A stretch of DNA of 23,893 nt, taken from positions 1-23,893 of the forward strand of contig JBQLZK010000083.1 of the NCBI GenBank assembly GCA_052168235.1. The letters are read 5' to 3'. The translations under genes were made by a program, and so were the position numbers. Source of the DNA: Thainema sp. GTDB taxonomy: Bacteria > Cyanobacteriota > Cyanobacteriia > Phormidesmidales > Phormidesmidaceae. Below are positions 364 through 23,801 of the stretch, piece after piece (positions within the stretch are counted from its first letter, which is position 1; each line of letters opens with the position of its first letter). A model generated the notes under the pieces. The model did not search any database, was not told the DNA's origin, and saw only the letters and a program-made list of their open reading frames with translations.

Positions 364-1917
364 TTAAGAATTTTCAGCCTGTGCCAAGATGTCAGGAGTC
401 GTCTCTTGATTTAGACAGCGATCATAAATACGACGATAGGCGGGCAAAAACCTTTGGACAGAAGCTTCTGAAGCTCCAAGCACAGGCAGCAATTGCTGAT
501 GTAGATCACAAATTTTTTCGATAATTTGTGCTTCATCAATCACTGTCAGAGTACTGTTTTCCATAACCACAGCCCCATCGACAAGAACTAGATCGACAGA
601 TGCTCCTGTTTCTGCGTAAGTGAGCTGTCTTAAAGGATTATTTAGAGGGACAAAAGGCATGCGATCGCATCGGTAGCCTACCAAATCAGCTCGGTATCCC
701 ACGGCCACCTTGCCCAACTGGTGGCCATAGCCAAATGCCTTTGCACCGCCTATGGTGGCACAGTGAAATGCTTCTTCCGCAGAAACCCATCGCTCTGGTG
801 GTTCGTAGGGAGATTTATTTAAGAGAGCAGCAGCCTGCAATACCGACAGCATATTCACACTATCGCGAGAACCACAACCATCGCTGGCCAGAGCGACACT
901 GACGTCGGCCTCCAGAAAAGCCCGCACTGGCATGCGGCCACTACCCAGCTTGAGATTCGATAGCGGGTTGTAGACCGCACTGGCTTCTGACTGGGCTAGC
1001 AGTTCGATATCTCTGGCCGTCAGCCAGACACAGTGTTGCAGGGCAAGTCGCTCTGATAAAATCCCTAAATCATTCAGGTACTCCACCATAGAGCGCTGAT
1101 AGAACAACTGCCCCGTTACTGCTTGTAAACGAGTTTCCAGCAGGTGCATAATCATCGGCAAATCATGGGTTGCCGCCAGGTCTGCTAGTGTTTCTAGCAG
1201 GCTGGGTGTACACCGTTGTGGGGCGGAAGGAGCAACTACATAACCCACTCGGTGCTGTTTGGGATGCCTGACCTGAGCAAGGTGCTGTGCAAGCTCAAGG
1301 ATGCGATCGCGGTTGGGGGCTCCCTGTTGATCCAACTCTTGCCGCAGGGAAGGCGGCATTTCTTCGTCAAAGAACGGCACAGCTCGGTAAAAGGGCAAGT
1401 CATATAGACTGACGCTGACCAAGGCCCGCAAGCCGATATCTTCATAGGCCCGAAAAACCGCTTCAATGCAATCCATTGAAAACTGGGGGGCTTGGTTGAC
1501 GTCATCGACGACGAAGGTTGTCCCAGTACGCAGGGCTTCAATAGCTCCGATCATCGTGCGCAAGTAGACCTGCTCGGGCGTCAGGGGGGCGATCGGTACA
1601 GGGGGCCGCACATAGTGCATCCACAACTCCAGGGGCAAATTGTCGAACCGGCCTTTGTGAAAATGCTCGTGGGAATGAAAATGCCCATTAATCAGGCCAG
1701 GGGCAATCAGCAGATGGGCTGCATCCAGCATCAGACAATCTGGCGGGTGAGCCAACTTTGGCCCGATCGCGGTAATGATGCCCTGTTCAATCAAGATGTC
1801 GGTGTTGGTCAAAGGAGGGGCGTAGGCCGATGGCAAAACCCGTGCATTTTTGATAATCAAGCTATGGGGTGAAGCAGGTGCAGTCATCATTGGGGTCTCT
1901 GGAGACGCTACGAACAA
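364..1917 (-). CDS. Metal-dependent amidohydrolase (AtzA/TrzA/MTA-SAH deaminase-like)
   Basis: 517 aa ORF with PGLINGHFH (HxH), HLLET (HxxE), QHCVW, ALASDG and GKVAVGYRADLV motifs. The true start may be a few codons downstream (MMTAP). Confidence 0.9.
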   Translation of the reverse strand: MFVASPETPMMTAPASPHSLIIKNARVLPSAYAPPLTNTDILIEQGIITAIGPKLAHPPDCLMLDAAHLLIAPGLINGHFHSHEHFHKGRFDNLPLELWMHYVRPPVPIAPLTPEQVYLRTMIGAIEALRTGTTFVVDDVNQAPQFSMDCIEAVFRAYEDIGLRALVSVSLYDLPFYRAVPFFDEEMPPSLRQELDQQGAPNRDRILELAQHLAQVRHPKQHRVGYVVAPSAPQRCTPSLLETLADLAATHDLPMIMHLLETRLQAVTGQLFYQRSMVEYLNDLGILSERLALQHCVWLTARDIELLAQSEASAVYNPLSNLKLGSGRMPVRAFLEADVSVALASDGCGSRDSVNMLSVLQAAALLNKSPYEPPERWVSAEEAFHCATIGGAKAFGYGHQLGKVAVGYRADLVGYRCDRMPFVPLNNPLRQLTYAETGASVDLVLVDGAVVMENSTLTVIDEAQIIEKICDLHQQLLPVLGASEASVQRFLPAYRRIYDRCLNQETTPDILAQAENS

Positions 1918-1977
1918 TTCTTGAATAGTGGATTCATCAACGCTTTAGAAACGGGTTTATGCTAATCTTTCCTAGGG

Positions 1978-2019
1978 ACTGTATACAGAAAAGATGATGG
2001 AAGCTGTATACGGGGTTAC
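1978..2019 (-). promoter_or_regulatory. Class II NtcA promoter P1, upstream of amidohydrolase 364-1917
   Basis: GTA-tacggggt-TAC at 2006-2019, exactly 22 nt spacer (1984-2005), minus-strand -10 TACAGT at 1978-1983. Confidence 0.75.
1979..1988. promoter_or_regulatory. Palindrome CTGTATACAG, putative GntR operator overlapping the P1 -10 box
   Basis: Perfect 10-bp palindrome, repeated at 10028-10037. A near copy CTGTATACGG at 2004-2013 overlaps the NtcA box. Confidence 0.6.
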
Positions 2020-2089
2020 GAGAATTGAGCAGGATGTCTCCCTGAGACACATCTCCTGAGTCTAAATTTCCTTCGCGGCCTGAAGAGTT

Positions 2090-2776
2090 ATGCAAATACT
2101 CCTGGTGAACAGCAATTCAACAATAGCGGTCACCGATCGCATGGTTGAAGCTGCCAACACGGTAGCTTCCCCGCATACCACCGTTACCGGGATGACCGCC
2201 TCCGGTGCTGCGGTCATCCGTTCTCACTTCGAATTTGCAGAGGCCGCTGTGCAAACGGTGCTAGCACTTCAGCAAAACGCTGCTGGGCACGATGCCGCCA
2301 TCATTGGCTGCTTTGGCGATCCTGGGCTGAAGGCCGCTCGCCAGGAACTTGATATTCCCGTTGTCGGGTTGGCTGAAGCGGCCATGCTCATGGCCCATCC
2401 ATTAGGAGGGCGCTACAGCGTCATCACCTTTGGCCAGCACCATAGAATCAACATTGCCGATTTAGCACGCAGCTATGGTCTCCACTCGCGTTTGGCTTCT
2501 GTACGTATTGCTCAGGTTAGCTACAGCGCCATTTTAGAAGACCCTGGCCAGGCTTTAGACGCTTGTGTGGAAGCCGGTAAACAAGCTCTGAGTCAAGATG
2601 GAGCCGATGTTTTGATTCTCGGTGGTGGACCGGTAGCAGGCATGGCATCCAAAGTCTCAGTTATGTTGGATGTACCTGTATTAGACAGCCTTGCCTGCGC
2701 CACAAAACTAGCTGAATCTTTGGCCGCTTGTGGTTACAAAACGAGTCGATTTGGTCTTTATCAATCTGTTTTATAG
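2090..2776 (+). CDS. Asp/Glu/hydantoin racemase family protein (allantoin/hydantoin racemase-like)
   Basis: ILLVNSNS N-terminus, IIGCFGDPGL (Cys74), PVVGLAEAAM, GADVLILGGG. The second catalytic Cys position is Gly179. Confidence 0.85.
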   Translation: MQILLVNSNSTIAVTDRMVEAANTVASPHTTVTGMTASGAAVIRSHFEFAEAAVQTVLALQQNAAGHDAAIIGCFGDPGLKAARQELDIPVVGLAEAAMLMAHPLGGRYSVITFGQHHRINIADLARSYGLHSRLASVRIAQVSYSAILEDPGQALDACVEAGKQALSQDGADVLILGGGPVAGMASKVSVMLDVPVLDSLACATKLAESLAACGYKTSRFGLYQSVL

Positions 2777-2787
2777 GAGGCGTTCCT

Positions 2788-3612
2788 TTGACTCTGTCTC
2801 AAACAGCTCCCCACCGGAGTGGTTCGCGCTATGAACAAGCCTATTTGGCTTTGCGCTCTGCAATTTTGTCGGGAGATATTACTGCCGATGAAAGACTGAT
2901 TGAAACCCAATTAGCCGAAAAATTACAGATCAGCCGCACACCGGTCAGAGAGGCCATTCGCTGTTTGCAGCAAGAAAGCCTAATTCAAATGGATGCGGAT
3001 GGAGGCCTATACGTCGTCAAGCTCTCTTTAGACGATGCGCTCAAACTCTACGACTGTCGGGTGGCATTGGAGCGATTGGCCGTTGTCGAGGCCTGCCAGA
3101 ATGCTACTGACCAACAGCTTCAGGCGATTGAAGAGAATCTGGCGCTCGCTGAAGCGATGACGGAGCAAGATCAGCAAACTGTCGATCGAATTCGGTTACT
3201 CACCTTAAATTGTGAGTTTCATCAACTCATTGCTCAGAGTTCTGGCAATGCCTGGATTATTTCACTGTTAGATCAAATTTCTCAAAAAATCACATTGATT
3301 CGGGTCCAAACTTTAAGGGGCATAGATCAACTGATTGATATTGATACTGAGCACCGTAAAATCTACGAGGCCATCGCTCAACGAGACCCAGTTACCGCTG
3401 AGAAGGAAATCGTGGATCATTTACGGAAAAGCCAAAAGAGAATTTTCGAAGTCTTTCAGCAAACTGAAATAAACGCTCCAACTTCCCCTGACAACGAAAC
3501 AAAATGTCCTCGATGTGGTTCCGTTGATATCAGCCGGAATGGGCGGCGCAGCTCTGGCCGACAAAATTATTTGTGCAAAGCCTGTGGGCGGCAGTTTTCA
3601 GAATGCAGATGA
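2788..3612 (+). CDS. GntR-family (FadR/FCD) transcriptional regulator with C-terminal zinc ribbon
   Basis: wHTH motif LIETQLAEKLQISRTPVREAI and FCD-like NCEFHQLI/EHRKIYEAI, then a CPRC...CKAC tail. Start moved to TTG 2788, behind AGGAGG at 2775-2780 (the track gives 2728). Confidence 0.9.
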   Translation: MTLSQTAPHRSGSRYEQAYLALRSAILSGDITADERLIETQLAEKLQISRTPVREAIRCLQQESLIQMDADGGLYVVKLSLDDALKLYDCRVALERLAVVEACQNATDQQLQAIEENLALAEAMTEQDQQTVDRIRLLTLNCEFHQLIAQSSGNAWIISLLDQISQKITLIRVQTLRGIDQLIDIDTEHRKIYEAIAQRDPVTAEKEIVDHLRKSQKRIFEVFQQTEINAPTSPDNETKCPRCGSVDISRNGRRSSGRQNYLCKACGRQFSECR

Positions 3613-3641: not shown

Positions 3642-4502
3642 CTACCCTCGCTTCACCAAACTCTGGGAGAGCCCAGCGACGCGCTCAACGATCACAATCA
3701 ACATCGCCGTGACCACCACAATCACTCCAGATACTGCCGCCGCGCGAATGTCCAGGTCGTTCTCGATCATGGACCAGAGCCGAATTGGTAAGACCTGAGT
3801 TCGCGCATCGGCTAAAAAGACCGAAATCGCTAGATTATCAAAAGAGGTGAGAAACACTACCAGACTCCCGGCAATTACCCCCTTGCGCGTGAGCGGCAGC
3901 ATAACTCGCAGAAAGGTATAGAACGCATTGGCTCCCAGGCTGGTAGAGGCCTGCTCTAGAGAGGTTTCAAACTGGGCTAGACTAGCCAGGGTGGTGCGCG
4001 TAACGTAGGGAATGCAGGTGACGATGTGGGCGATGACCAGGGCTAGGATAGAAGTGCGTAGCCCCGTCAGATTAAAAAAGAGCAGCACCGCCAGCCCAAT
4101 GGAAACCCCAGGTACCGCCAAGGGAGACATGATCAGGGCATCCATACTTTGCACCCAAACGGTGCGGCTACGGGAAAGGGGAATCGCTGCCGCCACTCCC
4201 AGCAAGGCACACACCAGAGTAGTGACCGCCGCAATCCAGAGGCTGTTCCAAAGGGCCGAATGCAGCTCAGTGAATTCGACCAAGGCCTGATACCACTGCA
4301 GGGAAATTCCCGTCGGCGGAAAGTTCAAGGAAGATGAAGCGCTGAAGGACATGATCAGGATGATCCCGGTAGGCACGTTGAGCACCATCAGCGCCAAACC
4401 TGCCAAAATCACCATCACGCCCTGGAAAGACAGACGTTCCCAATCCCACTGGGTCCAGGTGAACCGGGAGGACCGATGCATCGATTTAGGTAACGTTTTC
4501 AT
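3642..4502 (-). CDS. ABC transporter permease, PotC-like
   Basis: Hydrophobic; FPPTGISLQWY and EAA-loop equivalent LEQASTSLGA. ATG at 4502 preferred over TTG 4514. Confidence 0.9.
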   Translation of the reverse strand: MKTLPKSMHRSSRFTWTQWDWERLSFQGVMVILAGLALMVLNVPTGIILIMSFSASSSLNFPPTGISLQWYQALVEFTELHSALWNSLWIAAVTTLVCALLGVAAAIPLSRSRTVWVQSMDALIMSPLAVPGVSIGLAVLLFFNLTGLRTSILALVIAHIVTCIPYVTRTTLASLAQFETSLEQASTSLGANAFYTFLRVMLPLTRKGVIAGSLVVFLTSFDNLAISVFLADARTQVLPIRLWSMIENDLDIRAAAVSGVIVVVTAMLIVIVERVAGLSQSLVKRG

Positions 4503-5343
4503 GGGTTCTGACAACTCGGTTAAAGGAACTAAACGCCACCACCATCACTAGCACAGACAGCAACAGCACCGTAGACACCGCTGCCGCATTAGAGAAATTC
4601 AGCAAGGTCATCGCCTGCTGGTAGATATAGGTCGGCATAAATAACAGCCGGGAGCCGCCAATAATGGAAGGCGTTACAAAGGAACTAACGGCCAGCACAA
4701 AGACCAGCAAGCACCCCGAAATAATCCCCGGCACCGTCAGAGGCACGGTTACATGCCAGAAGGTTCGCCAGGCACCGGCTCCCAGACTGGCCGACGCGCT
4801 TTCCAGATTGCGGTCTACCTGCACCATAACCGCGATTAGGGAAAGCACCATCAGCGGCATATGAATTTGCGTTAGGGCCAGCACCACCCCCTGATGGGTA
4901 AACAGTAGCTTTAGCGGTTCGGCAATTATCCCCAGGTGAAGCAAAACCGTATTGATCACGCCGTTACGCCCCAAAATCACTACCCAGGCGAAGGACCGCA
5001 CCACGACACTGGTCAGCAGGGGCAGGAGAATTAAAAAGGTGAGCCAGGCCTGCCATTGCTGGGGAGTGCGCACGTACAGATAGGCCAGGGGATATCCCAA
5101 AAACAGGCTGAGCAGCATTACCTTGAGGCCCAGCCACAGGGTGTCAAAGAGAATTTTGAGATTGTAGGTATCGCCCCAAAACCGGGCATAGTGCTCCAGG
5201 CTAAAGCTGCTGAACTGACGATCTGCCGAAAAGCCCATGGCAATCAGCACCGCCAGTGGAGCGACATAAAACAGCAGCAGAAATGCCGCCAGGGGCAGCA
5301 CTAACTGCCATTCCTTCGGCTTCAGGAAAAGCTGAGTCGTCAC
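4486..5343 (-). CDS. ABC transporter permease, PotB-like
   Basis: LGYPLAY, SVVVRSFAWVVILGRNGVIN, LESASASLGA, SSFVTPSIIGG. Confidence 0.9.
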   Translation of the reverse strand: MTTQLFLKPKEWQLVLPLAAFLLLFYVAPLAVLIAMGFSADRQFSSFSLEHYARFWGDTYNLKILFDTLWLGLKVMLLSLFLGYPLAYLYVRTPQQWQAWLTFLILLPLLTSVVVRSFAWVVILGRNGVINTVLLHLGIIAEPLKLLFTHQGVVLALTQIHMPLMVLSLIAVMVQVDRNLESASASLGAGAWRTFWHVTVPLTVPGIISGCLLVFVLAVSSFVTPSIIGGSRLLFMPTYIYQQAMTLLNFSNAAAVSTVLLLSVLVMVVAFSSFNRVVRTHENVT

Positions 5344-5352
5344 AGTGACCTC

Positions 5353-6462
5353 CTAGACCGCGACTTCGCGGTTGAAGCGTTCGATCCAGGTGGGCAGGTT
5401 CTCGCTGATTTTAGCCCAATCTAGCGGAATCAGCCGATCTACTACTTCTTCAGTGGTGCGTCCCAGCCGTTCCCCAACAAAGCCGGGGATTTGCACATTG
5501 CGGTTGGTTGGCACGAAGTAGTAGGGAGCTGAGGCCATTTTGGTTTGCACTTCGGTGCTCATGGCCGCATCAATGTAGGTCACGGCCAGTTCCCGTGAGC
5601 GGGGATTCTTCACCACATGCATGGAGGGGCTGATCAACATCGCACCCTCCGAAGGAACGGCCCAGTCTACCGGACTGCCATCGGCGGCCAGGGGAGCGAC
5701 ATTGTTGAGGTAGTGGGGAGCAATATCCACTTCTCCCTGCTGAAACAGGGTAGATAGAGCACCGGGGTTAGGCGCGATCGCAGCTACATTGGGCAGCAAC
5801 TCTTGAATCGCCTCGAAAGCGGGATCAATATTGTCTTCGCCACCGCCCCGCATGCGGGCGAGCTGCACCATAAAGGCAGTACCTACAGTGCTTTGCATAC
5901 TGACCAGGCCAACCCGACCGGTGTATTCCGGTTTCCAGAGGTCTTCCCAGGAGGTGGGGGGAGTGGTAATGCGTTCCGTGTTATAGCCAAGCCCGATCGC
6001 CTGAACCGCAATGGTTGGTCCCCAACCTTCCTCAGCGTTCTGGTACTGGGGCAGCAGCTCGCCGAAGGTTTTACTCATGTCTGCCGGAAAGGGCTGAATG
6101 ATTTCGGCGATTGGAGCGGTGCGTAGCGGCCCTTCGTCCATAATCACGACATCATAAGGAGGGCTGTCGGGAGCAGCGGTGAGCTGGGCGATTTGATCGA
6201 CCGCCAGCAAGGGTACCAGACTCACAGAGTTACCTGTCGTGGTTTGAAAGTACTCTGCTAGAATGGTGCGATGGGCTTCTTCCCAGCTACCGGGGAAGGT
6301 GGAGGCAACCACTTCCCCAACCTCAGGGGTCTCTGCTGCCGGATCACTACTGCCGCCGGAGCGACAGCTTTTGATCAGCAAACTGGTGCCGACAAATAGC
6401 CCCGCTCCCAATACTGAACGGCGGCTCATGCGGGTTAAATAGCGTGAAGACGAAGAGTTCAT
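5353..6462 (-). CDS. ABC substrate-binding lipoprotein, PotD/PotF-like fold
   Basis: Twin-arginine-like SRRSVL signal, lipobox-like LIKSC, PTSWEDLWKPEYTGRV. GGAGG RBS upstream. Confidence 0.88.
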   Translation of the reverse strand: MNSSSSRYLTRMSRRSVLGAGLFVGTSLLIKSCRSGGSSDPAAETPEVGEVVASTFPGSWEEAHRTILAEYFQTTTGNSVSLVPLLAVDQIAQLTAAPDSPPYDVVIMDEGPLRTAPIAEIIQPFPADMSKTFGELLPQYQNAEEGWGPTIAVQAIGLGYNTERITTPPTSWEDLWKPEYTGRVGLVSMQSTVGTAFMVQLARMRGGGEDNIDPAFEAIQELLPNVAAIAPNPGALSTLFQQGEVDIAPHYLNNVAPLAADGSPVDWAVPSEGAMLISPSMHVVKNPRSRELAVTYIDAAMSTEVQTKMASAPYYFVPTNRNVQIPGFVGERLGRTTEEVVDRLIPLDWAKISENLPTWIERFNREVAV

Positions 6463-6569
6463 AACGACCTCCAGGGAAAAAGAAAATAAAGAATAAAACT
6501 TCGATAGTCAGCTCGGTTTGGGAATTAGCCCCTAACACCAGTTGCAAACGGGGGAAGGATGATGGGGCT

Positions 6570-7775
6570 CTATCGATGTGTGAGAAACGAGCGAGTTCCT
6601 GAGTTGAGCAAGTCTATGCATTCGGGCTTTTCCCCATGCTCTTGGGGCGGAAACAACCCACAGGCCTGCTCCGACACCAGCTCTAAGAACACGGCCTGCC
6701 CTGCCTGAAACTGAGGCGTTCCCAGCACACGGGACTCGGTTACCTTGATTTCCTGACCATCGTGCGTGCGCATTTCGTAAACCGTAGAGGGACCTAGGGG
6801 CAAACTCATTTCCACGGTGGCAGCCAGACGATAGCTGCCGGGTTCACGGTGAATCCGCAGATTTTCAGGGCGAATGCTCATCAAGATCGCTTGATGGACG
6901 GGAACGGGTGGGGCGATCGCACTCTTTAATACCCCAGCCGTGCCAAAGCTGACTGTGCAACCGCTGGCGGTGGTTGTCTCCACCTGACCGGCAAGCAGGT
7001 TTGACGTACCCACGAATTGACTGACAAACAGAGAGGCGGGATGGTCGTAAAGTTCTTGAGGCGTAGCCACCTGCTGAATTACCCCGTGATCCATAACCGC
7101 AATGCGATCGGCCATGGTCATCGCTTCTTCCTGATCGTGGGTGACAAAGACAGTGGTAATGCCCCGCTGGTTCAGCAGCCGCTTTACCTCAATCTGCATA
7201 TCCAACCGCAGGCTCTTATCCAGGGCGCTAAAGGGCTCATCCAGCAGTAGAATGCGGGGTTCGACCGCCAGGGCTCGGGCCAGGGCGACCCGCTGCTGTT
7301 GCCCGCCGGATAGCTCTTTGGGATAGCGATCGGCCATTCCCTGAAGCTTTACCAGAGCCAGCATTTCATCAATTTGCGTCTGCTGCCGCTGGCGCGGATA
7401 CCCCTGGGCCTTCAGTCCGTAGGCAATGTTTTGCCGCACCGTCATGTGGGGAAACAGCGCATAGTTTTGAAACACAATCCCTATGCCTCGCCGGTTGGGT
7501 GGCACCGCATCGACCCGCTGCTGACCGATGTAGATGCGTCCCTGGGTGGGCTGCAAAAATCCAGAAATGAGCTTCAGCAGAGTCGTCTTGCCACAGCCGC
7601 TAGAACCTAGGAGAGAGACAAATTCCCCTGCCGCCACCTCTAAATTCACCGTTTTTAGCGCTGTGAAGGAGCCAAAGCGGTGGGTAATCTGGTCCAAGGT
7701 CAGCGGATATTGCGCTTGCTCAGTACCGCTATCTTTAGGGGGAGCCGTGATATTACGAGGAACGGTCAGGTTCAT
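6570..7775 (-). CDS. ABC transporter ATPase, PotA-like, with C-terminal TOBE-type region
   Basis: Walker [47 protein letters not shown]. Confidence 0.93.
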   Translation of the reverse strand: MNLTVPRNITAPPKDSGTEQAQYPLTLDQITHRFGSFTALKTVNLEVAAGEFVSLLGSSGCGKTTLLKLISGFLQPTQGRIYIGQQRVDAVPPNRRGIGIVFQNYALFPHMTVRQNIAYGLKAQGYPRQRQQTQIDEMLALVKLQGMADRYPKELSGGQQQRVALARALAVEPRILLLDEPFSALDKSLRLDMQIEVKRLLNQRGITTVFVTHDQEEAMTMADRIAVMDHGVIQQVATPQELYDHPASLFVSQFVGTSNLLAGQVETTTASGCTVSFGTAGVLKSAIAPPVPVHQAILMSIRPENLRIHREPGSYRLAATVEMSLPLGPSTVYEMRTHDGQEIKVTESRVLGTPQFQAGQAVFLELVSEQACGLFPPQEHGEKPECIDLLNSGTRSFLTHR

Positions 7776-10026: not shown

Positions 10027-10068
10027 ACTGTATACAGAGCGAATGACAGAAAAAGTATGCAAGGCTAC
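10027..10068 (-). promoter_or_regulatory. Class II NtcA promoter P2 for the 9989-3642 operon, with the CTGTATACAG palindrome over the -10 box
   Basis: GTA-tgcaaggc-TAC at 10055-10068, 22 nt spacer, minus-strand -10 TACAGT at 10027-10032, palindrome at 10028-10037. Confidence 0.78.
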
Positions 10069-10126: not shown

Positions 10127-10168
10127 GTAGCCTGTAATACTTTTAGCTTCATCTTTTTTGAATACAGT
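10127..10168 (+). promoter_or_regulatory. Class II NtcA promoter P3 for the 10341-15020 operon
   Basis: GTA-gcctgtaa-TAC at 10127-10140, 22 nt spacer, -10 TACAGT at 10163-10168 within the degenerate operator TGAATACAG. Confidence 0.75.
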
Positions 10169-11264: not shown

Positions 11265-11273
11265 GCGAAAACC

Positions 11274-16489: not shown

Positions 16490-16542
16490 AAGCCCACAGA
16501 TATCAACAACTGATCTCGGCGTTTCACTTGAGCCGGGTCGAC

Positions 16543-16812
16543 TCAAGGCAGCACCAAAGATTCCCAGACTATGGCTGAAATCGGGTCATAGTTCGGCACA
16601 CTGATTTGGACTTCTAAGGTGGCAACCTGGGGAGCGGTTCGCTGTTTGGTGCAGCCGATCGTGGTGGCCTGGGCAATTGCTTTGGTCCTGGTGGAAATCC
16701 CCGAGATAGCGTGCATGCGATCGCCCAATTGCTGACCATGCTCAAATTCTAACCAGCCTGCAGAAGTTTCATTCCACGCAATGACGTCAACCTGGGCATC
16801 GGTCAGTATTGC
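16543..16812 (-). pseudogene. Internally deleted remnant of a second maleate-isomerase/AMDase-family gene
   Basis: AQVDVIAWNETSAGWLEF and QATTIGCTKQRTAPQVATLE..VPNYDPISAIVWESL align with residues ~64-110 and ~183-221 of ORF 9234-9989. The N-terminus and about 72 central residues are missing. Confidence 0.8.
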
Positions 16813-16813
16813 G

Positions 16814-17302
16814 TTAGAAAACCCCATTGATATAAGCCTTCTGGGGCTCCTCAATAGGGGTAATGGTGTCGGGAATTACGACGAGGGTCAGGTGGTTGCG
16901 ATAAAACGCGGTGCCGAACTTTCCTTGTACTCGCAACCATTGATCGGCAGGGAAAGCATCGGCGGTGTCGGTGGCGATCGCTAGCCCCAGCGGTACCGTA
17001 TCCGCTAAACAACAGCGAATCATGCGCCGCGCTAGCACAAACTGATTGGGCATGGGCGGCAAAGGCCGATGGACAAAGCCGATGATATCGACCGGCTGAC
17101 CGGGAAAATCCTCTACAGGTTCGCGCACGGAAGTGATGAGTCGTCGCCACTGCAACACGTTGCGCCGAAGCGGATCGGGCTCCTCACCCGCAGGTTCGGC
17201 ATAAGACCAGATATCGATCGCGGGCTCATCCTGGGGTGGCTCTTTGCCCGTGACGAACTGAGTCAGGTTTTGCAGCAGCGGAAAGTTTTTCAACATCATC
17301 AC
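16814..17302 (-). CDS. DUF1980/TIGR03943 (YcgQ-like) C-terminal domain protein
   Basis: GQPVDIIGFV, FVLARRMIRCCLAD, DQWLRVQGKF, IEEPQKAY. No transmembrane N-terminus. Abuts the ATPase stop codon. Confidence 0.7.
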   Translation of the reverse strand: MMMLKNFPLLQNLTQFVTGKEPPQDEPAIDIWSYAEPAGEEPDPLRRNVLQWRRLITSVREPVEDFPGQPVDIIGFVHRPLPPMPNQFVLARRMIRCCLADTVPLGLAIATDTADAFPADQWLRVQGKFGTAFYRNHLTLVVIPDTITPIEEPQKAYINGVF

Positions 17303-18118
17303 CTAAATGCGCGTATCCAACATTTCGGCCAGTTCCTGCTCTTCAAAGGCGCGCACGACTTCTGAGCGCAGGTGATCGACGAACAGGTTGCGATGATATT
17401 CAAAGCCTTTGCTCATCATGTCGCGCGGGCGCTCCATATCGATGGGAATCATCTCCAGCACGCGACCAGGGTTAGCAGTGAGAATGAGGACGCGATCAGC
17501 CAGGTAAACCGCCTCGTCGATATGGTGCGTCACGAAGACCACCGTCTTGTTCGTCCCTTCCCACAGCTCTAGCAAGAATTTCTGCATTTGGTGCCGAGTT
17601 TGCACATCCAGAGCGGCGAAAGGCTCGTCCATCAGCAGGAGATCGGTGCCCAGACAAAGGGCACGGGCAATACAAGCGCGCTGTTGCATCCCCCCCGAGA
17701 GCTGATGGGGATAGCGTTTGGCAGACTTCAATAAGCCGACTTGCTGGAGATAATGCTTGGCGCGATCGGTCCGTTCCTTTTTGTTAACGCCCTGTAAATC
17801 AAGACCAAACGCCACATTATCCAGCACCGACAACCACGGAAACAACGAGGCTTGTTGAAAGATCATGGAGCGATCGGTTGAGGGGGCTGTAATGGGCTCA
17901 CCGTTATAGATCATGGCTCCAGAGGTTGGCATCTCGAGACCGGCCATCATGCTGAGCAACGTACTTTTACCGCAGCCACTAGGACCGATGATGACCAGAA
18001 ACTCGCCCGAGTTGACGGTAAAACTCACCTCATCAATCGCTAAGTTGGCATCTCCACTGTCTGGATTCCAAATTTTCGAGACGTGGTCGCAAATGAGTTG
18101 TCCCATAACGGTTTCCAT
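17303..18118 (-). CDS. NitT/TauT-family ABC ATPase
   Basis: GPSGCGKST, FQQASLFPW, LSGGMQQR, MDEPFAALD, VFVTHHIDEAVYLADR. Confidence 0.93.
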   Translation of the reverse strand: METVMGQLICDHVSKIWNPDSGDANLAIDEVSFTVNSGEFLVIIGPSGCGKSTLLSMMAGLEMPTSGAMIYNGEPITAPSTDRSMIFQQASLFPWLSVLDNVAFGLDLQGVNKKERTDRAKHYLQQVGLLKSAKRYPHQLSGGMQQRACIARALCLGTDLLLMDEPFAALDVQTRHQMQKFLLELWEGTNKTVVFVTHHIDEAVYLADRVLILTANPGRVLEMIPIDMERPRDMMSKGFEYHRNLFVDHLRSEVVRAFEEQELAEMLDTRI

Positions 18119-18203
18119 ATAATTTCTTCACTGTTGGGTCTTAGGAGGATGAAGGGATGGTTGATGGCCCCAATAATTGTGACCCCGAAGCTGCACTCCC
18201 GCT

Positions 18204-19097
18204 TCACAATTGTGAAGCGCCCTTCCACCAAAGCATCCGGTTTTGAAGTTGCCGGAAGCCGACATCCAGGAGATAGCCTACTAAGCCAATCACGGCCATG
18301 CCTAGAAACATTAGCTTGGCGTTGAACATTTGACGCCCTACCATGACGATCGCCCCTAATCCAGTATTGACCCCTACCATTTCAGCCGCCAGCACTGCCA
18401 TCCACGCTGCAAAAAAGTTGATGCGCAGAATGAAAAACAGGTCAGGAATAATGGCAGGCAGGATGACTTTAAACATCACCTGCCGCCGACTGGCACCCAA
18501 GACTCTCGCCGTATTGATATAGAGCTGATTGACATTACGAATGGCATTCACCGTGGCTAAGGTCAGCAAGAAGAAAATGCCGACGAACACAACGAAAATT
18601 GCCGCATTATCACCAATGCCAAAGGCCATTATGGCAAAGGGAATCCAGGCAATGGGGGCGATGGGAGCCAGCAACGTAATCACGGGCAACGTTAACTTGC
18701 CAAACAGATCAAAGTAGCAGGCCAGCCCACCGACGCCCAAGGCCGCCACAAATCCCATGACTAGACCAATCATTACTCGCTTCAGAGTAGCTACGATCGC
18801 GGTCAATAAAACAAAGTTGCCTCCTGTCCGCTCGACCCCGATTCTGGGGGCAAGGAACTGATCCTGGTTAGCAATTTCGGCGAAAAATTGGTGGGGGGGC
18901 GGCAGGATGATCGTGTTGGTCCACCCCAGTACGGTAATCAGTTCCCAGATACCAATGAAAAGAGCCAGCGAAATCACCCACCACATCATCGATTGCGCTG
19001 TGTTTTTGGCCCAACGGGTGCGCGCGGCTTGCTGGGTTCGACGATTCGATGGCGATCGAACCTGAGGAGACGTTTTGGGTGGCATTTTGGTTGTCAT
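18204..19097 (-). CDS. NitT/TauT-family ABC permease
   Basis: ILPPP, PIAPIAWIP, TARVLGAS, VILPAIIP, AWMAVLAAEM..GLG. Confidence 0.92.
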   Translation of the reverse strand: MTTKMPPKTSPQVRSPSNRRTQQAARTRWAKNTAQSMMWWVISLALFIGIWELITVLGWTNTIILPPPHQFFAEIANQDQFLAPRIGVERTGGNFVLLTAIVATLKRVMIGLVMGFVAALGVGGLACYFDLFGKLTLPVITLLAPIAPIAWIPFAIMAFGIGDNAAIFVVFVGIFFLLTLATVNAIRNVNQLYINTARVLGASRRQVMFKVILPAIIPDLFFILRINFFAAWMAVLAAEMVGVNTGLGAIVMVGRQMFNAKLMFLGMAVIGLVGYLLDVGFRQLQNRMLWWKGASQL

Positions 19098-19196
19098 GAT
19101 GGGGAATTAGCTAGCGTCAACGAGAGCAGTAAAGAGAAAAGCATGGGGTGAATTTGTCGGGAGCAGGCGTTAGCGAGGTTTCCATGCCAAATACGG

Positions 19197-20243
19197 TTAC
19201 ACCGTGGTTTTGACCTTCACCCGCTCCCACAACTCGGGACTTTCTGCGATCACCTCTTCGAGCAGCGAGAAATTGACGAAGTTGTCATCGAGGTCGGCAT
19301 TGATGTAATTCAATTCCTTCATGCTCTGGGCGCGGCTATACATAAAGTCGCGCTTGTCACGAATATCAACGCCAGGGGGCTGAGCTTGAGCGGCGGCTAG
19401 CAGGCTTTCCATATCGGTCTTGTAGTATTTGTCGATAGTGGTTTTAGCCGCTTCTTCAAAGCTGTTCTCGATTTGGTACTGGGCTTCAAAGAAGACCCGA
19501 ATCACGTCTTTCACTACCTCCGGTTCGGCCTCGATGACCTCGTTCCGAACGGCGAGTACGCAGTCGGGATAGCCCGCGCCATAGATGTCGGTGCCATCGC
19601 CAAGGATGTTGCCATTGGTAGAAGTTTTCGCCTTGGTCGCATAGGGTTCAATGTGGCTCACCGCGTCTACCTGACCTGCTACATAAGCATTGAGCAACTC
19701 GGTGGAGTCGCCTAGATAAACCATTTCTACATCGTCGTAGGTCAGGCCCTCTTTCTTGAGGTAGTCATAGACCACCACGTCTAGCGTGTCTGCCTGGAAG
19801 GTAGCGACCTTTTTCCCTTTAAGTTCAGCGAAGGATTTAATTTCGGGCTTGGCCACGACAATCAAGCCTTCCACACCGCTACCAGCAACGACTTGGAAAG
19901 AAGCCCCTTGGGTATAGGCTGCGATCGCATTCGTAAAAGGAATCACCGCCATCTCGACCTGTCCCGTTGCCAACTGGACGGCTACGTCAGCAGGCATGGG
20001 AGTCAAGGCAGCAGTTCCGGTAAAGCCATATTGACTAAACAACTGCTTTTCGGCGGAATAGAACAACGGCATGTTGCAGATACCCGCACCGTGGGCGAAC
20101 TTAATTTCGCGCCCACCATGAGAGGATGCAGTTTTGGTCCCGTTGCTAGCACAACTGCTTAAAATCGAAAGCATGGCAGGCGTTAGGGCAGCGCCCACAC
20201 TCATGCCGAGAAAACGGCGACGACTAGTACTTGAACGAAACAT
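19197..20243 (-). CDS. NitT/TauT (NMT1/SsuA-like) ABC substrate-binding lipoprotein
   Basis: SRRRFLG signal, LSSC lipobox, ELKGKKVA, GQVDAVSHIEPY. Adjacent to the cognate permease and ATPase. Confidence 0.88.
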   Translation of the reverse strand: MFRSSTSRRRFLGMSVGAALTPAMLSILSSCASNGTKTASSHGGREIKFAHGAGICNMPLFYSAEKQLFSQYGFTGTAALTPMPADVAVQLATGQVEMAVIPFTNAIAAYTQGASFQVVAGSGVEGLIVVAKPEIKSFAELKGKKVATFQADTLDVVVYDYLKKEGLTYDDVEMVYLGDSTELLNAYVAGQVDAVSHIEPYATKAKTSTNGNILGDGTDIYGAGYPDCVLAVRNEVIEAEPEVVKDVIRVFFEAQYQIENSFEEAAKTTIDKYYKTDMESLLAAAQAQPPGVDIRDKRDFMYSRAQSMKELNYINADLDDNFVNFSLLEEVIAESPELWERVKVKTTV

Positions 20244-20354: not shown

Positions 20355-21908
20355 TCAGCAAGCCGGACAACGACAGTTAGGGCTGTAAAAAGACTCACAA
20401 GACTTAGGATCAAACCAACCGTCATAGACCTTCTTCACATAGGGGAAAACTTCTTTGGCGAGTTCGCGACGCCGCAATTCATCTGGGGTGAGCGGTGCCC
20501 GCATCGACTCGGCCAGTTCCTCTAACAAAGCGTCCTTATCGACGCGGGTAAACTTGCGGTCTTTGAGAATGACCTCACCATTGCACATCACCGTGTGAAT
20601 GCCGTGGGTGCGACTACGATGCAGTACCGCTTCCAGCACAGGAATCGTGTCGTCAAGATAGGGATAGGCCAGGTGATTCCAGTCCATCAGCACAATGTCG
20701 GCGGCTTTTCCGGGCTCTAATGTGCCAACTTCCTTCGCAAAGCGAGTGGTGTGGGCACCGTTTTCCGTTGCCATCTGGAAAACTTGAGCGGCAGCGGGGA
20801 CGAGATTATCCATTCCCGGTTCACGATGTAGCTTGAGAACGAGGCGCATCTCTTGCAGCATGTCGCGATCGTCGTTAATGCCTGCTTCATCTAGGCCCAT
20901 GCCGACTCGCACACCTTTTTTGGCGTAGTAGTTCAACGGCGCGATCCCGCTTTGCAGTCGCAGATTAGAGCTGGCGTTGTGGCAAATCATCGTACCCGTT
21001 TCGGCAATCAAGTCGATATCTTCTTCGGTGAGCCAAACGCCGTGCCCTAAGGTCAGGTGCTCTCCGAGGATGCCGAGCTTATTAAGATGCTTAACCGCAG
21101 TAGTTCCTGTGCGACGCTTCGCATATTCCATCTGGTAGGGCGTCTCGAGCAGGTGCATGTGCATGCCGACGCCATACTTCTGAGCGTACTCGTTTTGCTG
21201 CGTCAGTGCCTCATCGTCGCACCAGTGCAGGTTGGCTGGAGCCAATTGAATGCGGATGCGATCGCTCCCCTTGCCTTCCCACGCCTGCCACAGCGATTCA
21301 AAGAACCACAGATAATCTTTCAGCGGCACCTCGTGGGGCTTCAGCAGGGCTTCCATATCGGCAGCAATGCTGGGGGGCAGCTTCGCGACAAACTCATCGT
21401 TCGATTCGTAAACGAAGTGGTTCTGCGTGCGGACGCCAAAGCAGTACGAAACCCGCATCCCAATGTCTTCGTAAGCTTTCAGCAGGTTGGCGGTGATGTC
21501 GGGCCAATTGCCCGCTGGTCCCGGCAACCAGCCGTGAATGTGCTGCACGGTGGTAATCCCCGACTCAATCATCTCGAACGCGGAGTACATTGTGTCGAGG
21601 TAAAAATCGACCTTGCGAGCCGAGAGGCGGGAGGCAAACCACAGCTCCAGCGGATAGTCGAGGGAACCGAGTTGCAGTGGGGTTAAACCTACATGGTGGT
21701 GGCTATTGACAAACCCCGGCATCACGACATCGTGGTCAGATCCCAGCACTTCATCGGGGTGATATTTAGCCGCTAATTCTTCATAAGGCCCGATTTCAAT
21801 AATGCGGCCATCCTGTTGAAAAACAGCCCCGTTTTCTAAAATTTCTGCCTCAGTACGACTGAGAGATTTGGTGATAACATATTTGCCGCGAACAAGCGTT
21901 GAAGCCAT
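20355..21908 (-). CDS. Metal-dependent amidohydrolase (AtzA/TrzA-like deaminase) with Cys-rich tail
   Basis: PGFVNSHHH, HLLET, GHGVW, SNLRLQSG, GLDE, GTLEPGKAADIV. Ends in CESFYSPNCRCPAC. Confidence 0.9.
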   Translation of the reverse strand: MASTLVRGKYVITKSLSRTEAEILENGAVFQQDGRIIEIGPYEELAAKYHPDEVLGSDHDVVMPGFVNSHHHVGLTPLQLGSLDYPLELWFASRLSARKVDFYLDTMYSAFEMIESGITTVQHIHGWLPGPAGNWPDITANLLKAYEDIGMRVSYCFGVRTQNHFVYESNDEFVAKLPPSIAADMEALLKPHEVPLKDYLWFFESLWQAWEGKGSDRIRIQLAPANLHWCDDEALTQQNEYAQKYGVGMHMHLLETPYQMEYAKRRTGTTAVKHLNKLGILGEHLTLGHGVWLTEEDIDLIAETGTMICHNASSNLRLQSGIAPLNYYAKKGVRVGMGLDEAGINDDRDMLQEMRLVLKLHREPGMDNLVPAAAQVFQMATENGAHTTRFAKEVGTLEPGKAADIVLMDWNHLAYPYLDDTIPVLEAVLHRSRTHGIHTVMCNGEVILKDRKFTRVDKDALLEELAESMRAPLTPDELRRRELAKEVFPYVKKVYDGWFDPKSCESFYSPNCRCPAC

Positions 21909-22218: not shown

Positions 22219-22261
22219 ATATTACGAAGGACTGTCCTCAGGGGTTGTATACTCAGTTACA
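22219..22261 (-). promoter_or_regulatory. Class II NtcA promoter P4 for the 21908-15074 operon
   Basis: T-GTA-tactcagt-TAC-A at 22246-22261, 22 nt spacer (22225-22246), minus-strand -10 TAATAT at 22219-22224. Confidence 0.72.
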
Positions 22262-22381
22262 CTTAGCTATGTCAAATATTTCTCTAAGGTCTTTTGTAGA
22301 GAAGTTGTAATTCTTTTAGGGTTGTCTTAAAAGCGGATGTTGCGCTTCAGAGTCCTTATCTATGCTGATTTGAAGTATCGC

Positions 22382-22387
22382 TATAAT
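22382..22387 (+). promoter_or_regulatory. Possible -10 element for the amidase at 22452
   Basis: Consensus TATAAT about 65 nt upstream of the ATG. No -35 or NtcA box found at the expected distance. Confidence 0.3.
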
Positions 22388-22451
22388 TTGGCGATTAGAA
22401 GGTTGTCGTCCAAGCCATTTTGTGTTGACATTCTTGAATTTTTCGAAGGGT

Positions 22452-23801
22452 ATGAAATACTTCACTGCAAGCACAGCAGTTACGCAGATGGAACATGATC
22501 GACTCTCCTTGTCAAGAATCTTAGATAGTTGCTTGCAGCGAATTGATAGCAGAGAAGCGGTTGTTCAAGCGTGGACTTTTTTGGCGGTAGAGGCAGCTCA
22601 ACAACAAGCCGCTAGACACGCACAACAATTGCGCGCGAGATCTCCCCAGGCAGTGTTGACGCAGTTTCCCTTGTTGGGTATTCCGGTTGGTGTTAAAGAT
22701 ATTTATGCCACGGTTGACATGCCCACTGCCTGGGGGCTGCCGCTTTATCGCGATCGCTATCTGCTTGAGGAGGCGGAAGTGGTGACTCGCCTCAAGGCTG
22801 CTGGTGCCATTATTTTAGGCAAAACTGTGACGACCGAGTTGGCAACGGCAGCAGCGGGTCCTACTCACAATCCCCATAACCTCGACCATACCCCTGGAGG
22901 TAGTTCGAGCGGTTCGGCGGCAGCCGTCGCTGATGGGATGGTACCGATCGCGATCGGCTCGCAGACGATGGGGTCGATTCTCCGTCCGGCTGCTTATTGC
23001 GGTATTTTTGGCTTCAAACCTAGCTTTGGCAGTATTTCGCGCCAAGGGGTGATGCCAGTATCAGCCGATCTTGATCATGTTGGTATCTTTGCTCGCTGTT
23101 TACAGGACATTGATCGAGTACTCGAGGTGCTGAGAGATCCAGGGGATACCTCATGCTCATACTCAGAAACGCGATCGCCCCAATTCAGCCGTCCTCCTAA
23201 ACTTGCCTGGATCAAAACGCCCAACTGGCATCTCATCGATCCCCTTGCTCAAACTCACTTGCAACAGGTGGCCGATGTTTTGTCCAAAGCAGGCATTGAT
23301 ATTAACGCTATTGAGTTACCGAACGACTGCGCTGACTTTTGGGAAACAGTCCAAACGCTGTGCGCCTATGGACTGTATCAGCATCACGGCCAGTTACTAG
23401 ACAACTCGTCATCGGAATGTTCGCCTAAACTGCAAGCCTGGTTGAAGCGTGGAAAGCAAATCGACCTATCGATGTACGCAGTTGCACTGCGTAAACAGGA
23501 GCAATACCGGGCCAGCATTGACACCCTGTTTAATCAATTTGATGCGGTTCTGACCCCCGTCACCACCGGCCCTGCGCCCCAAGGCTTAGAAAATACTGGG
23601 TCCCCTTTATTTTGTGCTCTATGGACCGTCTGTGGTTTACCTGCCATCAACATTCCCATCGGTCAAACGCGGGACAGTTTGCCTTTGGGATGTCAGCTAG
23701 TCGGACGTTTCAACTGCGATCGCCAGCTTTTATCCATTGCCGAATACTGTTGGCAGCATATTGAACCTACTTTTGGTGGAATTAATATTCCAAGCAGATA
23801 A
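22452..23801 (+). CDS. Amidase-signature family amidase
   Basis: GIPVGVKD, GKTVTTE, PGGSSSGSAAAV, GSQTMGSILRPAAYCG. ATG 22452 behind GAAGGG preferred to 22422. Confidence 0.9.
   Translation: MKYFTASTAVTQMEHDRLSLSRILDSCLQRIDSREAVVQAWTFLAVEAAQQQAARHAQQLRARSPQAVLTQFPLLGIPVGVKDIYATVDMPTAWGLPLYRDRYLLEEAEVVTRLKAAGAIILGKTVTTELATAAAGPTHNPHNLDHTPGGSSSGSAAAVADGMVPIAIGSQTMGSILRPAAYCGIFGFKPSFGSISRQGVMPVSADLDHVGIFARCLQDIDRVLEVLRDPGDTSCSYSETRSPQFSRPPKLAWIKTPNWHLIDPLAQTHLQQVADVLSKAGIDINAIELPNDCADFWETVQTLCAYGLYQHHGQLLDNSSSECSPKLQAWLKRGKQIDLSMYAVALRKQEQYRASIDTLFNQFDAVLTPVTTGPAPQGLENTGSPLFCALWTVCGLPAINIPIGQTRDSLPLGCQLVGRFNCDRQLLSIAEYCWQHIEPTFGGINIPSR

Follow-up and report, generated by a model that had tools for sequence, protein, structure and literature searches.

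Contig C83 (JBQLZK010000083.1) of a cyanobacterial genome assigned to Thainema sp. (7.54 Mb in 205 contigs) carries a conserved hydrolytic nitrogen-scavenging system that consists of two units. The enzyme families are familiar and their combination is uncharacterised, though conserved across phyla. We analyzed the entire contig of 23,893 bp, referred to below as the window, and consider it probable that it represents a nitrogen-regulated, acquired catabolic island, which imports nitrogen-rich ring or amidine compounds and strips their nitrogen as ammonia by hydrolysis. This reading draws on the recurrence of the same gene families in other genomes and in metagenomes, on the active-site motifs of the enzymes, and on four predicted NtcA-type promoters of the design GTAN8TAC-N21/22-TAN3T, which head four transcription units comprising 19 of the 22 open reading frames (ORFs).

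Gene content of the window

The 22 ORFs of at least 100 amino acids (aa), named g1 to g22, were scanned against Pfam and NCBIfam, and a Pfam family was found for 21 of them, g16 being the exception. The inventory of a preliminary description, made from the nucleotide sequence only, proved correct: the window encodes three COG0402 amidohydrolases, a D-hydantoinase, a PuuE-like enzyme, two amidases, two racemase-fold proteins, three complete ATP-binding cassette (ABC) importers, and one regulator of the GntR type. Its statement that an oxidoreductase is missing was also borne out, as no such family was found among the 22 ORFs. The genes are arranged as follows (TAT, twin-arginine translocation).

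g1, 364-1917, minus strand: COG0402 (TRZ-ATZ-type) amidohydrolase
g2, 2090-2776, plus strand: protein of the hydantoin/allantoin-racemase fold (PF01177, 142 bits)
g3, 2728-3612, plus strand: GntR/FCD regulator with a C-terminal IS1-type zinc ribbon; start codon uncertain
g4-g7, 3642-7775, minus strand: PotABCD/Phn-like ABC importer
g4, 3642-4514, minus strand: permease of the Pot-like importer
g5, 4486-5343, minus strand: permease of the Pot-like importer
g6, 5353-6462, minus strand: TAT-lipoprotein binding protein of the Pot-like importer
g7, 6570-7775, minus strand: ATPase of the Pot-like importer
g8, 7807-9237, minus strand: D-hydantoinase/dihydropyrimidinase
g9, 9234-9989, minus strand: Asp/Glu-racemase superfamily protein of the Amdase/maleate-isomerase fold
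g10-g12, 10302-12739, plus strand: polar-amino-acid-type ABC importer
g10, probable start 10341, plus strand: binding protein with TAT motif and lipobox
g11, 11274-11930, plus strand: permease of the polar-amino-acid-type importer
g12, 11900-12739, plus strand: ATPase of the polar-amino-acid-type importer
g13, 12752-14095, plus strand: COG0402 amidohydrolase of the HLAQ subfamily
g14, about 14028-15020 (frame open from 13965), plus strand: PuuE-like hydrolase of the polysaccharide-deacetylase fold
g15, 15074-16546, minus strand: amidase-signature enzyme
g16, ORF 16543-16854, remnant 16504-16854, minus strand: no family; pseudogene paralogous to g9
g17, 16814-17302, minus strand: stand-alone DUF1980 C-terminal domain protein
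g18-g20, 17303-20243, minus strand: NitT/TauT-type ABC importer, g18 being the ATPase
g19, 18204-19097, minus strand: permease of the NitT/TauT-type importer
g20, 19197-20243, minus strand: NMT1/SsuA-like TAT-lipoprotein binding protein
g21, 20355-21908, minus strand: COG0402 amidohydrolase, first gene of the g21-to-g15 operon
g22, 22422-23801 (probable start ATG 22452), plus strand: amidase-signature enzyme

All three binding proteins (g6, g10, g20) open with a twin-arginine motif and a lipobox, as read from the translations. The top NCBIfam matches of g10-g12 are of the Tcy/Ehu type, every one below its cut-off. Rfam gave no match in the window at E ≤ 0.1, so that no riboswitch is indicated in the long leaders, and a repeat search of the window returned nothing but short pairs at chance level.

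Two conserved units and their distribution

Judged by which genes stay together, unit 1 is a conserved unit of g1 and g4-g13 with g2, g3 and g14 as accessories. By the same comparison, unit 2 is a separate conserved unit formed by g22 beside g21-g17, optionally followed by a g9-type gene (g9') and g15, which is rare in the phylum and frequent in the family. The preliminary description had taken the window for a single cyanobacterial cluster with one hydrolytic route. What stands is that the gene set acts like a functional unit and recurs, namely in cyanobacteria, in a metagenomic operon and in Azospirillum; the window, however, comprises two separately conserved units plus accessories, and since the core is common to Proteobacteria too, it is no single pathway specific to cyanobacteria. 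The possibility raised there that the modules might never occur together elsewhere did not materialize, as the same families recur side by side across genomes and metagenomes.

The composition of unit 1 is most evident outside the cyanobacteria. Among 80 metagenome loci anchored on g13, 39 were at least 7 kb long and were used for counting: at least one of g10-g12 stood beside g13 in 33 of these, g1 was present in 13 and g8 or g9 in 12, while a Pot-like ABC importer accompanied g1 in nine and g8 or g9 in five. A collinear operon with a GntR gene followed by g9-g8-g10-g11-g12-g13-g7-g6-g5-g4-g1 was found, whole or partial, in five metagenome loci (L200, L212, L213, L217, L169). In the first four, g1 closes the operon (47-49% identity), and L200 contains nothing beyond these genes and a further GntR gene. 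A form linked to TRAP transporters was seen in L023, L054, L211 and L148.

We additionally drew loci anchored on g9 from 185,579 species genomes, 69 of them non-cyanobacterial, mostly from Burkholderia, Paraburkholderia and Caballeronia, and 11 cyanobacterial; the named relatives in this search were Elainellaceae, Vacuolonema, Nodosilinea, Phormidesmis and similar. A g8 homologue (64-66% identity) directly follows g9 in 60 of the 68 non-cyanobacterial loci with downstream room, and loci of the Burkholderia/Paraburkholderia type often add genes for a racemase-fold protein and an MFS importer as well as a GntR gene in divergent orientation. In cyanobacteria, g15 follows the g9-type gene in 8 of 10 loci with downstream room. 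Plasmid p2 of Azospirillum brasilense Sp7 carries a GntR gene, a NitT-type ABC importer, and homologues of g13 (55%), g9 (57%), g8 (70%) and g15 (50%), with a Pot-like ABC importer close by. In this locus (L227), an intact g8 homologue is located at 13290-14699, where the plasmid table lists no gene, and a hydroxyisourate hydrolase gene (991-1347) adjoins the cluster.

Among 40 relatives, likeness to the window at the DNA level beyond ABC ATPase motifs was confined to G006, G007, G022 and G026, and a genome of the same genus (G001) lacks the cluster. Protein-level mapping showed the same set of genes in shuffled order in other cyanobacteria. G006 has g3, g7, three tandem g6 copies, g5, g4, g21-g17 and g10-g13 on one contig, and g9, g14, g22, a Bmp-type binding protein gene and g15 on another. 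In G496, about 17 kb contain g1 (81%), g8 (81%), g2 (72%), g22, g21-g17, g15, g9 and g3, and in G433, g22 and g21-g17-g9'-g15 are followed by g4-g7 and g14. The tandem g6 paralogues of G006 (L010, contig C2, 5581-8897; 46-51% identity to g6) are accompanied by one Pot-like permease gene; their multiplication hints at several related substrates.

For unit 2, g21 was used as a marker. Orthologues with at least 63% identity are present in 35 of 172 genomes of the family, in several genera, and one orthologue (57% identity) was found in a sample of 400 genomes of the phylum. The amidase gene g22 is divergent from g21 in G007, G022, G433, G452, G469, G496, G438 and L020, and lies beyond g17 in G530. 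The small gene g17 encodes about 160 aa with a CC motif and directly abuts the stop of g18; it is kept after g18 in G006, G022, G433, G452, G469, G496 and G530. Its 111 relatives are nearly all 150-185 aa long, a few 96-129 aa, and all named sources are cyanobacterial. Translation of g17 is probably coupled to that of the ATPase gene g18, and the g17 product could be a transporter accessory or a metal chaperone.

Predicted NtcA-type promoters and a candidate GntR operator

We searched the window for GTAN8TAC followed by TAN3T at 20-23 nt, upstream of a gene. Four sites showed this pattern, each pointing at the start of an operon:

Predicted promoter of g1, 1979-2019, minus strand: GTAACCCCGTATAC-N21-TACAGT, with the -10 box within CTGTATACAG (1979-1988)
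Predicted promoter of the g9-to-g4 operon, 10027-10068, minus strand: GTAGCCTTGCATAC-N22-TACAGT, with the -10 box within CTGTATACAG (10028-10037)
Predicted promoter of the g10-to-g14 operon, 10127-10168, plus strand: GTAGCCTGTAATAC-N22-TACAGT
Predicted promoter of the g21 operon, 22219-22260, minus strand: GTAACTGAGTATAC-N22-TAATAT

The box GTAN8TAC occurs six times in the window compared to 1.5 expected, a number reached in none of 100 shuffles. Four of the six boxes lie in three divergent intergenic regions, with TAN3T at 21-22 nt towards g1, g9, g10 and g21; the box before g21 is palindromic (TGTA-N8-TACA) and faces g22 as well. The composite pattern occurs 90 times on both strands of the 7.54-Mb genome and four times on C83, compared to 0.29 expected. 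A total of 33 of the 90 sites are intergenic with a downstream ORF in the right orientation, including the four on C83. Among the remaining 29, six lie before urtA, the gene of a Liv/Urt-type permease, nirA, glnA and two Sll0783-type nitrogen-starvation-cluster genes according to NCBIfam; 13 precede ORFs without a family at E ≤ 1e-10, and the others precede a mixture of genes, such as those for kinases, pgi and a Dps protein. We regard the pattern as validated because matches fall at glnA, nirA and urtA. The regulator NtcA itself is encoded in the genome (385 bits, cut-off 245). Similar sites lie upstream of homologous operons in G006 (ahead of both g21 and g9), G026, L019, L020, L035, L083 and L084, and the equivalent of the site upstream of g21 is present in L020 and G006.

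In three of the four predicted promoters the -10 box reads TACAGT, and in two of these it lies inside the palindrome CTGTATACAG. This palindrome has six copies in the genome, two of them on C83 compared to 0.02 expected, and homologous promoters elsewhere bear TGTATACA(G/T)T. The copies on C7, C8, C14 and C49 have no obviously related neighbours by inspection of the ORFs. We propose CTGTATACAG as the operator of g3, the GntR-type regulator. The homologues of g3 (71-73% identity) adjoin g9 in L035, L084 and G496. At its C-terminus, g3 carries a four-cysteine zinc ribbon of the IS1/IS1595 type (residues 259-292, window 3502-3612; NF050000, 48 bits, cut-off 28). A tblastn match in G006 spans residues 18-292 of 294, and since the fusion is thus kept there as well, it is no local accident.

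Catalytic motifs of the hydrolases

Only one of the window enzymes, g8, reached a curated equivalog or family cut-off in NCBIfam (PRK13404, 800.9 bits, cut-off 647; TIGR02033, 545.3 bits, cut-off 393.25). It matches D-hydantoinase structures at E of about 1e-121 (1yny, E 3e-121), and its metal ligands and carbamylated-lysine motif are recognizable by eye in the translation.

Deaminases of COG0402 share the motif set HxH, the proton-shuttle motif HxxE, a second His and an Asp. The canonical motifs (HxH, HLLE, His, Asp) are present in g1, and g21 also has HLLE, which is of the deaminase type (alignment A1). In g13, HLAQ stands at the position of HxxE, and the Gln is found in nine of nine family members including g13 itself. 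The g13 subfamily is large, with 1437 relatives at E ≤ 1e-40, many of them 61-69% identical and from Proteobacteria. None of the three amidohydrolases reached an equivalog cut-off; the top scores of g1 (at most 237 bits) are far below the cut-offs of 522-617.

The PuuE-like protein g14 is homologous to the structures 3cl6 (E 2.6e-91) and 1z7a (E 1.2e-93) and scores 321.2 bits against the PuuE equivalog model TIGR03212, below its cut-off of 424.6. The start of g14 overlaps the end of g13, the same arrangement as in L142. The PuuE-fold family also includes cyclic imidases (PMC9304392).

Both amidases pass the PF01425 cut-off of 27 (g15, 358.7 bits; g22, 279.8 bits), and their translations show the motifs GGSSGG/GGSSSG and GGSIR/MGSILR; in g15, the Lys, cis-Ser and Ser motifs were identified by eye. 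The best NCBIfam match of g15 is PRK07486 (358.6 bits, under the cut-off of 465). All NCBIfam matches of g22 are under cut-off as well, and its nearest structure is malonamidase E2 (1ock, E 5e-63). Models of AtzE gave 252-257 bits for g15 (cut-offs 426-461) and 198-210 bits for g22. A classical N-carbamoylase was not found in the window.

Racemase-fold proteins

The preliminary description had listed g2 and g9 as racemase-fold proteins. The two-cysteine arrangement of true racemases is absent from g9 in our alignments and apparently from g2 as well. Hydantoin/allantoin racemases have one catalytic cysteine per domain. In g2, the first motif, GCFGDPG, is kept, whereas the second expected site reads LGGGPVAGM and has no Cys (alignment A2). 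Proteobacterial g2 homologues lack Cys at both sites in the same alignment. In fold, g2 clearly matches the structures 3qvj and 5lfd (E 1e-33 to 3e-32).

In g9, the first catalytic position is Gly (NGTS) and the second Cys (FCTN), and a PSSN motif is present. Among 102 family sequences, Gly occupies the first site in all, [N/S]GTS is found in 100, xCTN in 102 and PSSN in 101. A HMMER alignment to 3dg9/2vlb places NGTS opposite MGTS and FCTN opposite SCGG, so that g9 has the equivalents of Gly74 and Cys188 instead of a cysteine pair, as is characteristic of arylmalonate decarboxylases. Also retained are the Thr-Ser and Tyr residues that belong to the dioxyanion hole in the decarboxylase, together with a single Cys as proton donor. 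On these residues g9 is not of the racemase type, and we liken it to arylmalonate decarboxylase as a working comparison that claims no membership. The g2 and g9 proteins look complementary, with the first cysteine site present only in g2 and the second only in g9. The frame of g9 overlaps the start of g8 by 4 nt.

Its alignments identify g16 as a decayed paralogue of g9 and thereby as a third racemase-fold gene. Its alignment to the intact copy in L020 is limited to residues 63-108 and 168-236 of that copy; g16 also contains an internal stop and carries Glu in place of the catalytic Gly. Intact g9-type copies hold the position of g16 in L020, G433 and G438. The remaining g9 beside g8 may serve the roles of both copies.

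Origin of the island

The GC content of C83 is 53.5% compared to 50.0% for the genome, 2.3 standard deviations above the genome mean. This places the contig at rank 119 among the 120 contigs that measure 10 kb or more; 0.9% of 24-kb windows attain its GC content. The contig begins and ends in repeats of some 50 nt (1-55 and 23839-23893), of which the left is shared with at least 15 further contig ends and the right with about five. Together, the end repeats and the raised GC content fit an island between multicopy elements, which was probably acquired horizontally and is accessory. That the same-genus genome G001 has no such cluster also speaks for acquisition. A quick, unfinished tree of 102 sequences of the g9 family set 82 non-cyanobacterial rows apart (SH-aLRT 90) without resolving the lineages of cyanobacteria; it gives no direction of transfer and names no donor. 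In G438, the related island is bordered by an integron integrase gene (TIGR02249, 488 bits; L225, contig C65, 142-1209).

Related genes elsewhere in the genome

Outside the window, the genome encodes two M20 carbamoylase-type genes (C9, C86), HyuAB and urease. Contig C9 (1477-9251, L098) contains a second ureide-type locus with HyuB, an RraA-like gene, HyuA, a pyridoxal-phosphate-type (PLP) enzyme and the M20 carbamoylase-type gene. The preliminary description had listed the cyanuric acid hydrolase AtzD as absent from the window. This is correct, its family PF09663 not having been detected there by the Pfam scan, but the genome has a bona fide cyanuric acid hydrolase on contig C116 (238-1290, L222; 455.9 bits, equivalog cut-off 360). 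The AtzD family was found in none of 14 control genomes and in 47 of 172 genomes of the cyanobacterial family. Given AtzD, the M20 carbamoylase-type genes, HyuAB and urease elsewhere in the genome, a purely hydrolytic, self-contained route is not demonstrated. The view that the gene set corresponds to no known pathway did hold, as equivalog cut-offs were not reached outside the hydantoinase subfamily and literature searches returned no description of the cluster.

Proposed function

From gene content, conservation, linkage, and the promoter and active-site motifs, we infer the following reactions, substrate class, repressor site and regulation. Enzymes of COG0402 deaminate or deiminate ring amidines, hydantoinases and PuuE-fold enzymes open cyclic ureides, amides and imides, and amidase-signature enzymes hydrolyze amides or ureido compounds. 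The substrates would be of the ureide, hydantoin, dihydropyrimidine or aminoheterocycle type, probably with a carboxylate. In unit 1, two binding-protein importers would take up the compound and g8 would open the ring, with g1 acting as a deaminase and g13 as a COG0402 hydrolase of the HxxQ type. The most likely role of g9 would be a stereospecific decarboxylation, or the protonation of an enolate, of a carboxylated intermediate. In unit 2, import by the NitT/TauT-type system would be followed by deamination by g21, and the amidases would cleave the resulting amide or ureido acids to ammonia. Overall, the order would run from import through deamination and/or ring opening to the action of g9 on a carboxylated intermediate, and from there through amide or ureido hydrolysis to ammonia. 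Under nitrogen limitation, NtcA would activate the four promoters, and the substrate would probably free the GntR repressor g3 from CTGTATACAG, which overlaps -10 boxes; expression would then be gated by NtcA AND GntR.

That the substrate is carboxylated is suggested because TRAP/TTT acid transporters replace the amino-acid-type ABC importer in L211 and L148 and because g9 has the carboxylate-binding PSSN motif. A more specific form of the proposal is tentative and less likely than not: g13, g9 and g8, with or without g1 or g15, might encode a hydrolytic route, so far undescribed, whose substrate would be a carboxylated heterocycle (ureide or triazine-like), for instance one formed when purines are oxidized. 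It would combine a g9-type, cofactor-free decarboxylase with a single cysteine, a non-deaminase hydrolysis by g13, and the NtcA AND GntR gate. In such a pathway, g9 would decarboxylate a ring-derived malonate-like or carboxy-hydantoin intermediate with stereospecific protonation.

Several observations weigh against a nitrogen-regulated island with one catabolic purpose. The three importers may each carry an unrelated compound. G452, G469 and G530 have only g22 and g21-g17, units 1 and 2 are separate in many genomes, and in five proteobacterial genomes with g9, a search at E ≤ 1e-60 returned no g13. As g13 lacks the Glu of the deaminase motif HxxE, it may not deaminate, and because the window has no classical N-carbamoylase, a carbamoylase role of the amidase-signature enzymes is conjecture. 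Compared with the 12 criteria of Maimanakos et al. 2016 (PMC4996985), hydrophobic-pocket residues excepted, g9 does not show the full set. It has P-S for P14-P15 and Thr for G189 in the alignment to Table 4 of that article, and reads IAWNGTSAGW and ITTFCTNL where LMGTSLSF and ILLSCGGL are given; g9 could instead be an isomerase or epimerase. Regulation by NtcA is a prediction made from sequence, and the loci of G007 and G022 show no match to the strict promoter pattern. A query for sequencing runs that contain this DNA gave seven DNA or metagenome runs, with shares of 0.07-0.36, and no RNA run.

Alternative readings

The evidence does not discriminate between a purine-oxidation ureide, a compound of the triazine/barbiturate type, and a substituted hydantoin or dihydropyrimidine as substrate. 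Pathways dedicated to one of these classes were weighed separately.

A variant purine/ureide pathway for oxidized urate or guanine products (HIU/OHCU-like, allantoin-like or carboxy-hydantoin) is possible and, in our judgement, unlikely. Here, g9 would act like OHCU decarboxylase, g2 like an allantoin racemase and g14 and g8 like allantoinases, with the COG0402 enzymes as aminopurine deaminases and the amidases as analogues of ureido-acid amidohydrolases. The proximity of g14 to PuuE (3cl6) fits this, although g14 stays under the PuuE equivalog cut-off. The proximity of g2 to allantoin racemase (5lfd, 3qvj) fits as well, but it appears to lack the second cysteine motif. The hydroxyisourate hydrolase gene beside the related Azospirillum cluster points in the same direction, as do the acid transporters (TRAP/TTT) that stand in for ABC importers in L211 and L148 and suggest a carboxylated substrate. 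On the other hand, uricase (PF01014) was not found in the genome, allantoate amidohydrolase and allantoicase are absent from the window, and we know of no urate or allantoin carriers among ABC importers of these types.

Improbable, too, is a pathway for s-triazines, cyanuric acid or barbiturate-type compounds, in which the COG0402 enzymes would carry out successive deaminations, the ring would be opened by the AtzD encoded elsewhere or by g8, and g15 and g22 would act like AtzE or AtzF. TRZ/ATZ models and structures of atrazine and triazine hydrolases are among the top matches of g1, g13 and g21, and entries for AtzE, allophanate hydrolase and biuret hydrolase are among those of g15 and g22, yet every Atz/Trz score is far under its cut-off. 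The cyanuric acid hydrolase of the genome exceeds the equivalog cut-off, but it is located outside the window on a contig (C116) that shows no link to C83. In G456, an AtzD gene lies at a distance of 3 kb from g21-g17; in G438, the distance is 13 kb to g15 and about 19 kb to g21, and a member of the family lies within L191. By a hand count among related and thus non-independent genomes of the family, AtzD is present in 14 of 35 g21-positive compared to 33 of 137 g21-negative genomes; 21 of the 35 lack it, as does the conserved operon in L200. In addition, s-triazines are mostly man-made.

We judge as equally improbable a classical Hyu/Pyd-like use of 5-substituted hydantoins or dihydrouracils that would yield amino acids, with the other enzymes as unrelated neighbours. 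The hydantoinase g8 does pass the dihydropyrimidinase subfamily cut-off, and a hydantoin-racemase-fold gene and a GntR gene occur with g9-g8 in Paraburkholderia-type operons with an MFS importer, but the racemase-fold proteins appear to lack the two-cysteine set. Genes of the M20 carbamoylase type are found on C9 and C86 and beside the related loci L212, L191 and G456, whereas neither the window nor the self-contained operon of L200 has a carbamoylase. Nor would this reading explain why g13 and g1 are so strictly linked to g8 and g9.

That the window holds unrelated transporter-enzyme cassettes gathered by mobile elements on an acquired island, with no shared function, appears very improbable to us. 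It would account for the repeats at both contig ends, the atypical GC content, the pseudogene g16, the IS1-type zinc ribbon on g3, the differing gene order among genomes and the integron integrase beside the G438 island. It is opposed by the joint occurrence of the same families in many arrangements across cyanobacteria, Proteobacteria and metagenomes, and by the NtcA-type promoter design shared by the four main units, two of which also share the 10-bp palindrome.

Two further candidates were rejected. A cyclic-imide route (imidase, half-amidase, maleate isomerase) was set aside because PuuE (E 2.6e-91) is a far better match to g14 than 3qbu, an imidase-related entry of the 3qvb type (E 1.9e-16), and because the first cysteine of maleate isomerase has no counterpart in g9. 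For ectoine, EhuA/C/D and EutA are among the best NCBIfam matches of g12, g11 and g9, all well under cut-off, and a DoeA/DoeB-type gene is absent.

Implications

If the proposed nitrogen-scavenging function is correct, filamentous non-heterocystous cyanobacteria of this family can subsist on dissolved organic nitrogen heterocycles under nitrogen limitation. Our literature searches found no description of N-heterocycle use as part of the NtcA regulon, nor of catabolic hydrolases of this kind as NtcA targets, and searches on the themes of cyanobacterial hydantoinase/NtcA, cyclic imidase and arylmalonate decarboxylase did not retrieve the cluster. The core occurs widely among soil Proteobacteria, and two of its carriers, Azospirillum brasilense Sp7 and Paraburkholderia, are tractable. 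A testable nitrogen-control prediction and these two model hosts are new here. Since the enzyme core is this widespread, as the 1437 relatives of g13 illustrate, the identification of one substrate would annotate well over a thousand genes. It could also show what the branch of the racemase superfamily that resembles arylmalonate decarboxylase does in nature; for the decarboxylase itself, the 2016 article states that the natural substrate is unknown (PMC4996985).

Comparison with known systems

The nearest systems are hyu operons, the PuuE/HpxA ureide branch and the Atz pathway, and each has one or more defining parts that the window lacks or matches only below cut-off. Hydantoin-utilisation (hyu) operons occur in Arthrobacter, Agrobacterium, Sinorhizobium and Pseudomonas. 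Like these, the window has a hydantoinase of the cyclic-amidohydrolase type (g8), a protein of the hydantoin-racemase fold (g2), a dedicated importer and a local regulator. Unlike these, it has no N-carbamoylase of the nitrilase or M20 type, its racemase-fold proteins appear not to have the two-cysteine set, and its hydantoinase gene comes with tightly linked genes for COG0402, arylmalonate-decarboxylase-like and amidase-signature enzymes.

With the PuuE/HpxA ureide branch (3cl6, 1z7a, 3qvj, 5lfd), the window shares clear homologues in g14 and g2 and the logic of hydrolytic ammonia release. It differs by the absence of urate oxidase, HIU hydrolase, OHCU decarboxylase, allantoate amidohydrolase and allantoicase, and g14 does not reach the level of a PuuE equivalog. 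The combination of TRZ/ATZ-superfamily amidohydrolases with amidase-signature enzymes resembles the Atz/Trz pathway, as does the presence of AtzD on C116 of the same genome and near the unit in G456, G438 and L191. In contrast to that pathway, no Atz or Trz equivalog cut-off is reached, and neither the window nor the conserved operon encodes AtzD.

The g9 protein is similar to the arylmalonate decarboxylase of Bordetella bronchiseptica (3dg9, 2vlb) in fold, in its Gly and Cys sites and in the Thr-Ser and Tyr residues, and to maleate isomerase (2xec) in fold and in the PSSN motif. The match, however, has an E of only about 1e-11, and P15, G189 and the flanking motifs differ from those tabulated for the decarboxylase in PMC4996985. 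The genomic context of g9 is also one of nitrogen-heterocycle hydrolases rather than aryl acids. Finally, the predicted promoters have a design (GTAN8TAC-N21/22-TAN3T) identical to that of the NtcA-activated glnA, nirA and urtA promoters, from which they differ in that they would target catabolic hydrolases and in that two of them have an additional palindrome over the -10 box.

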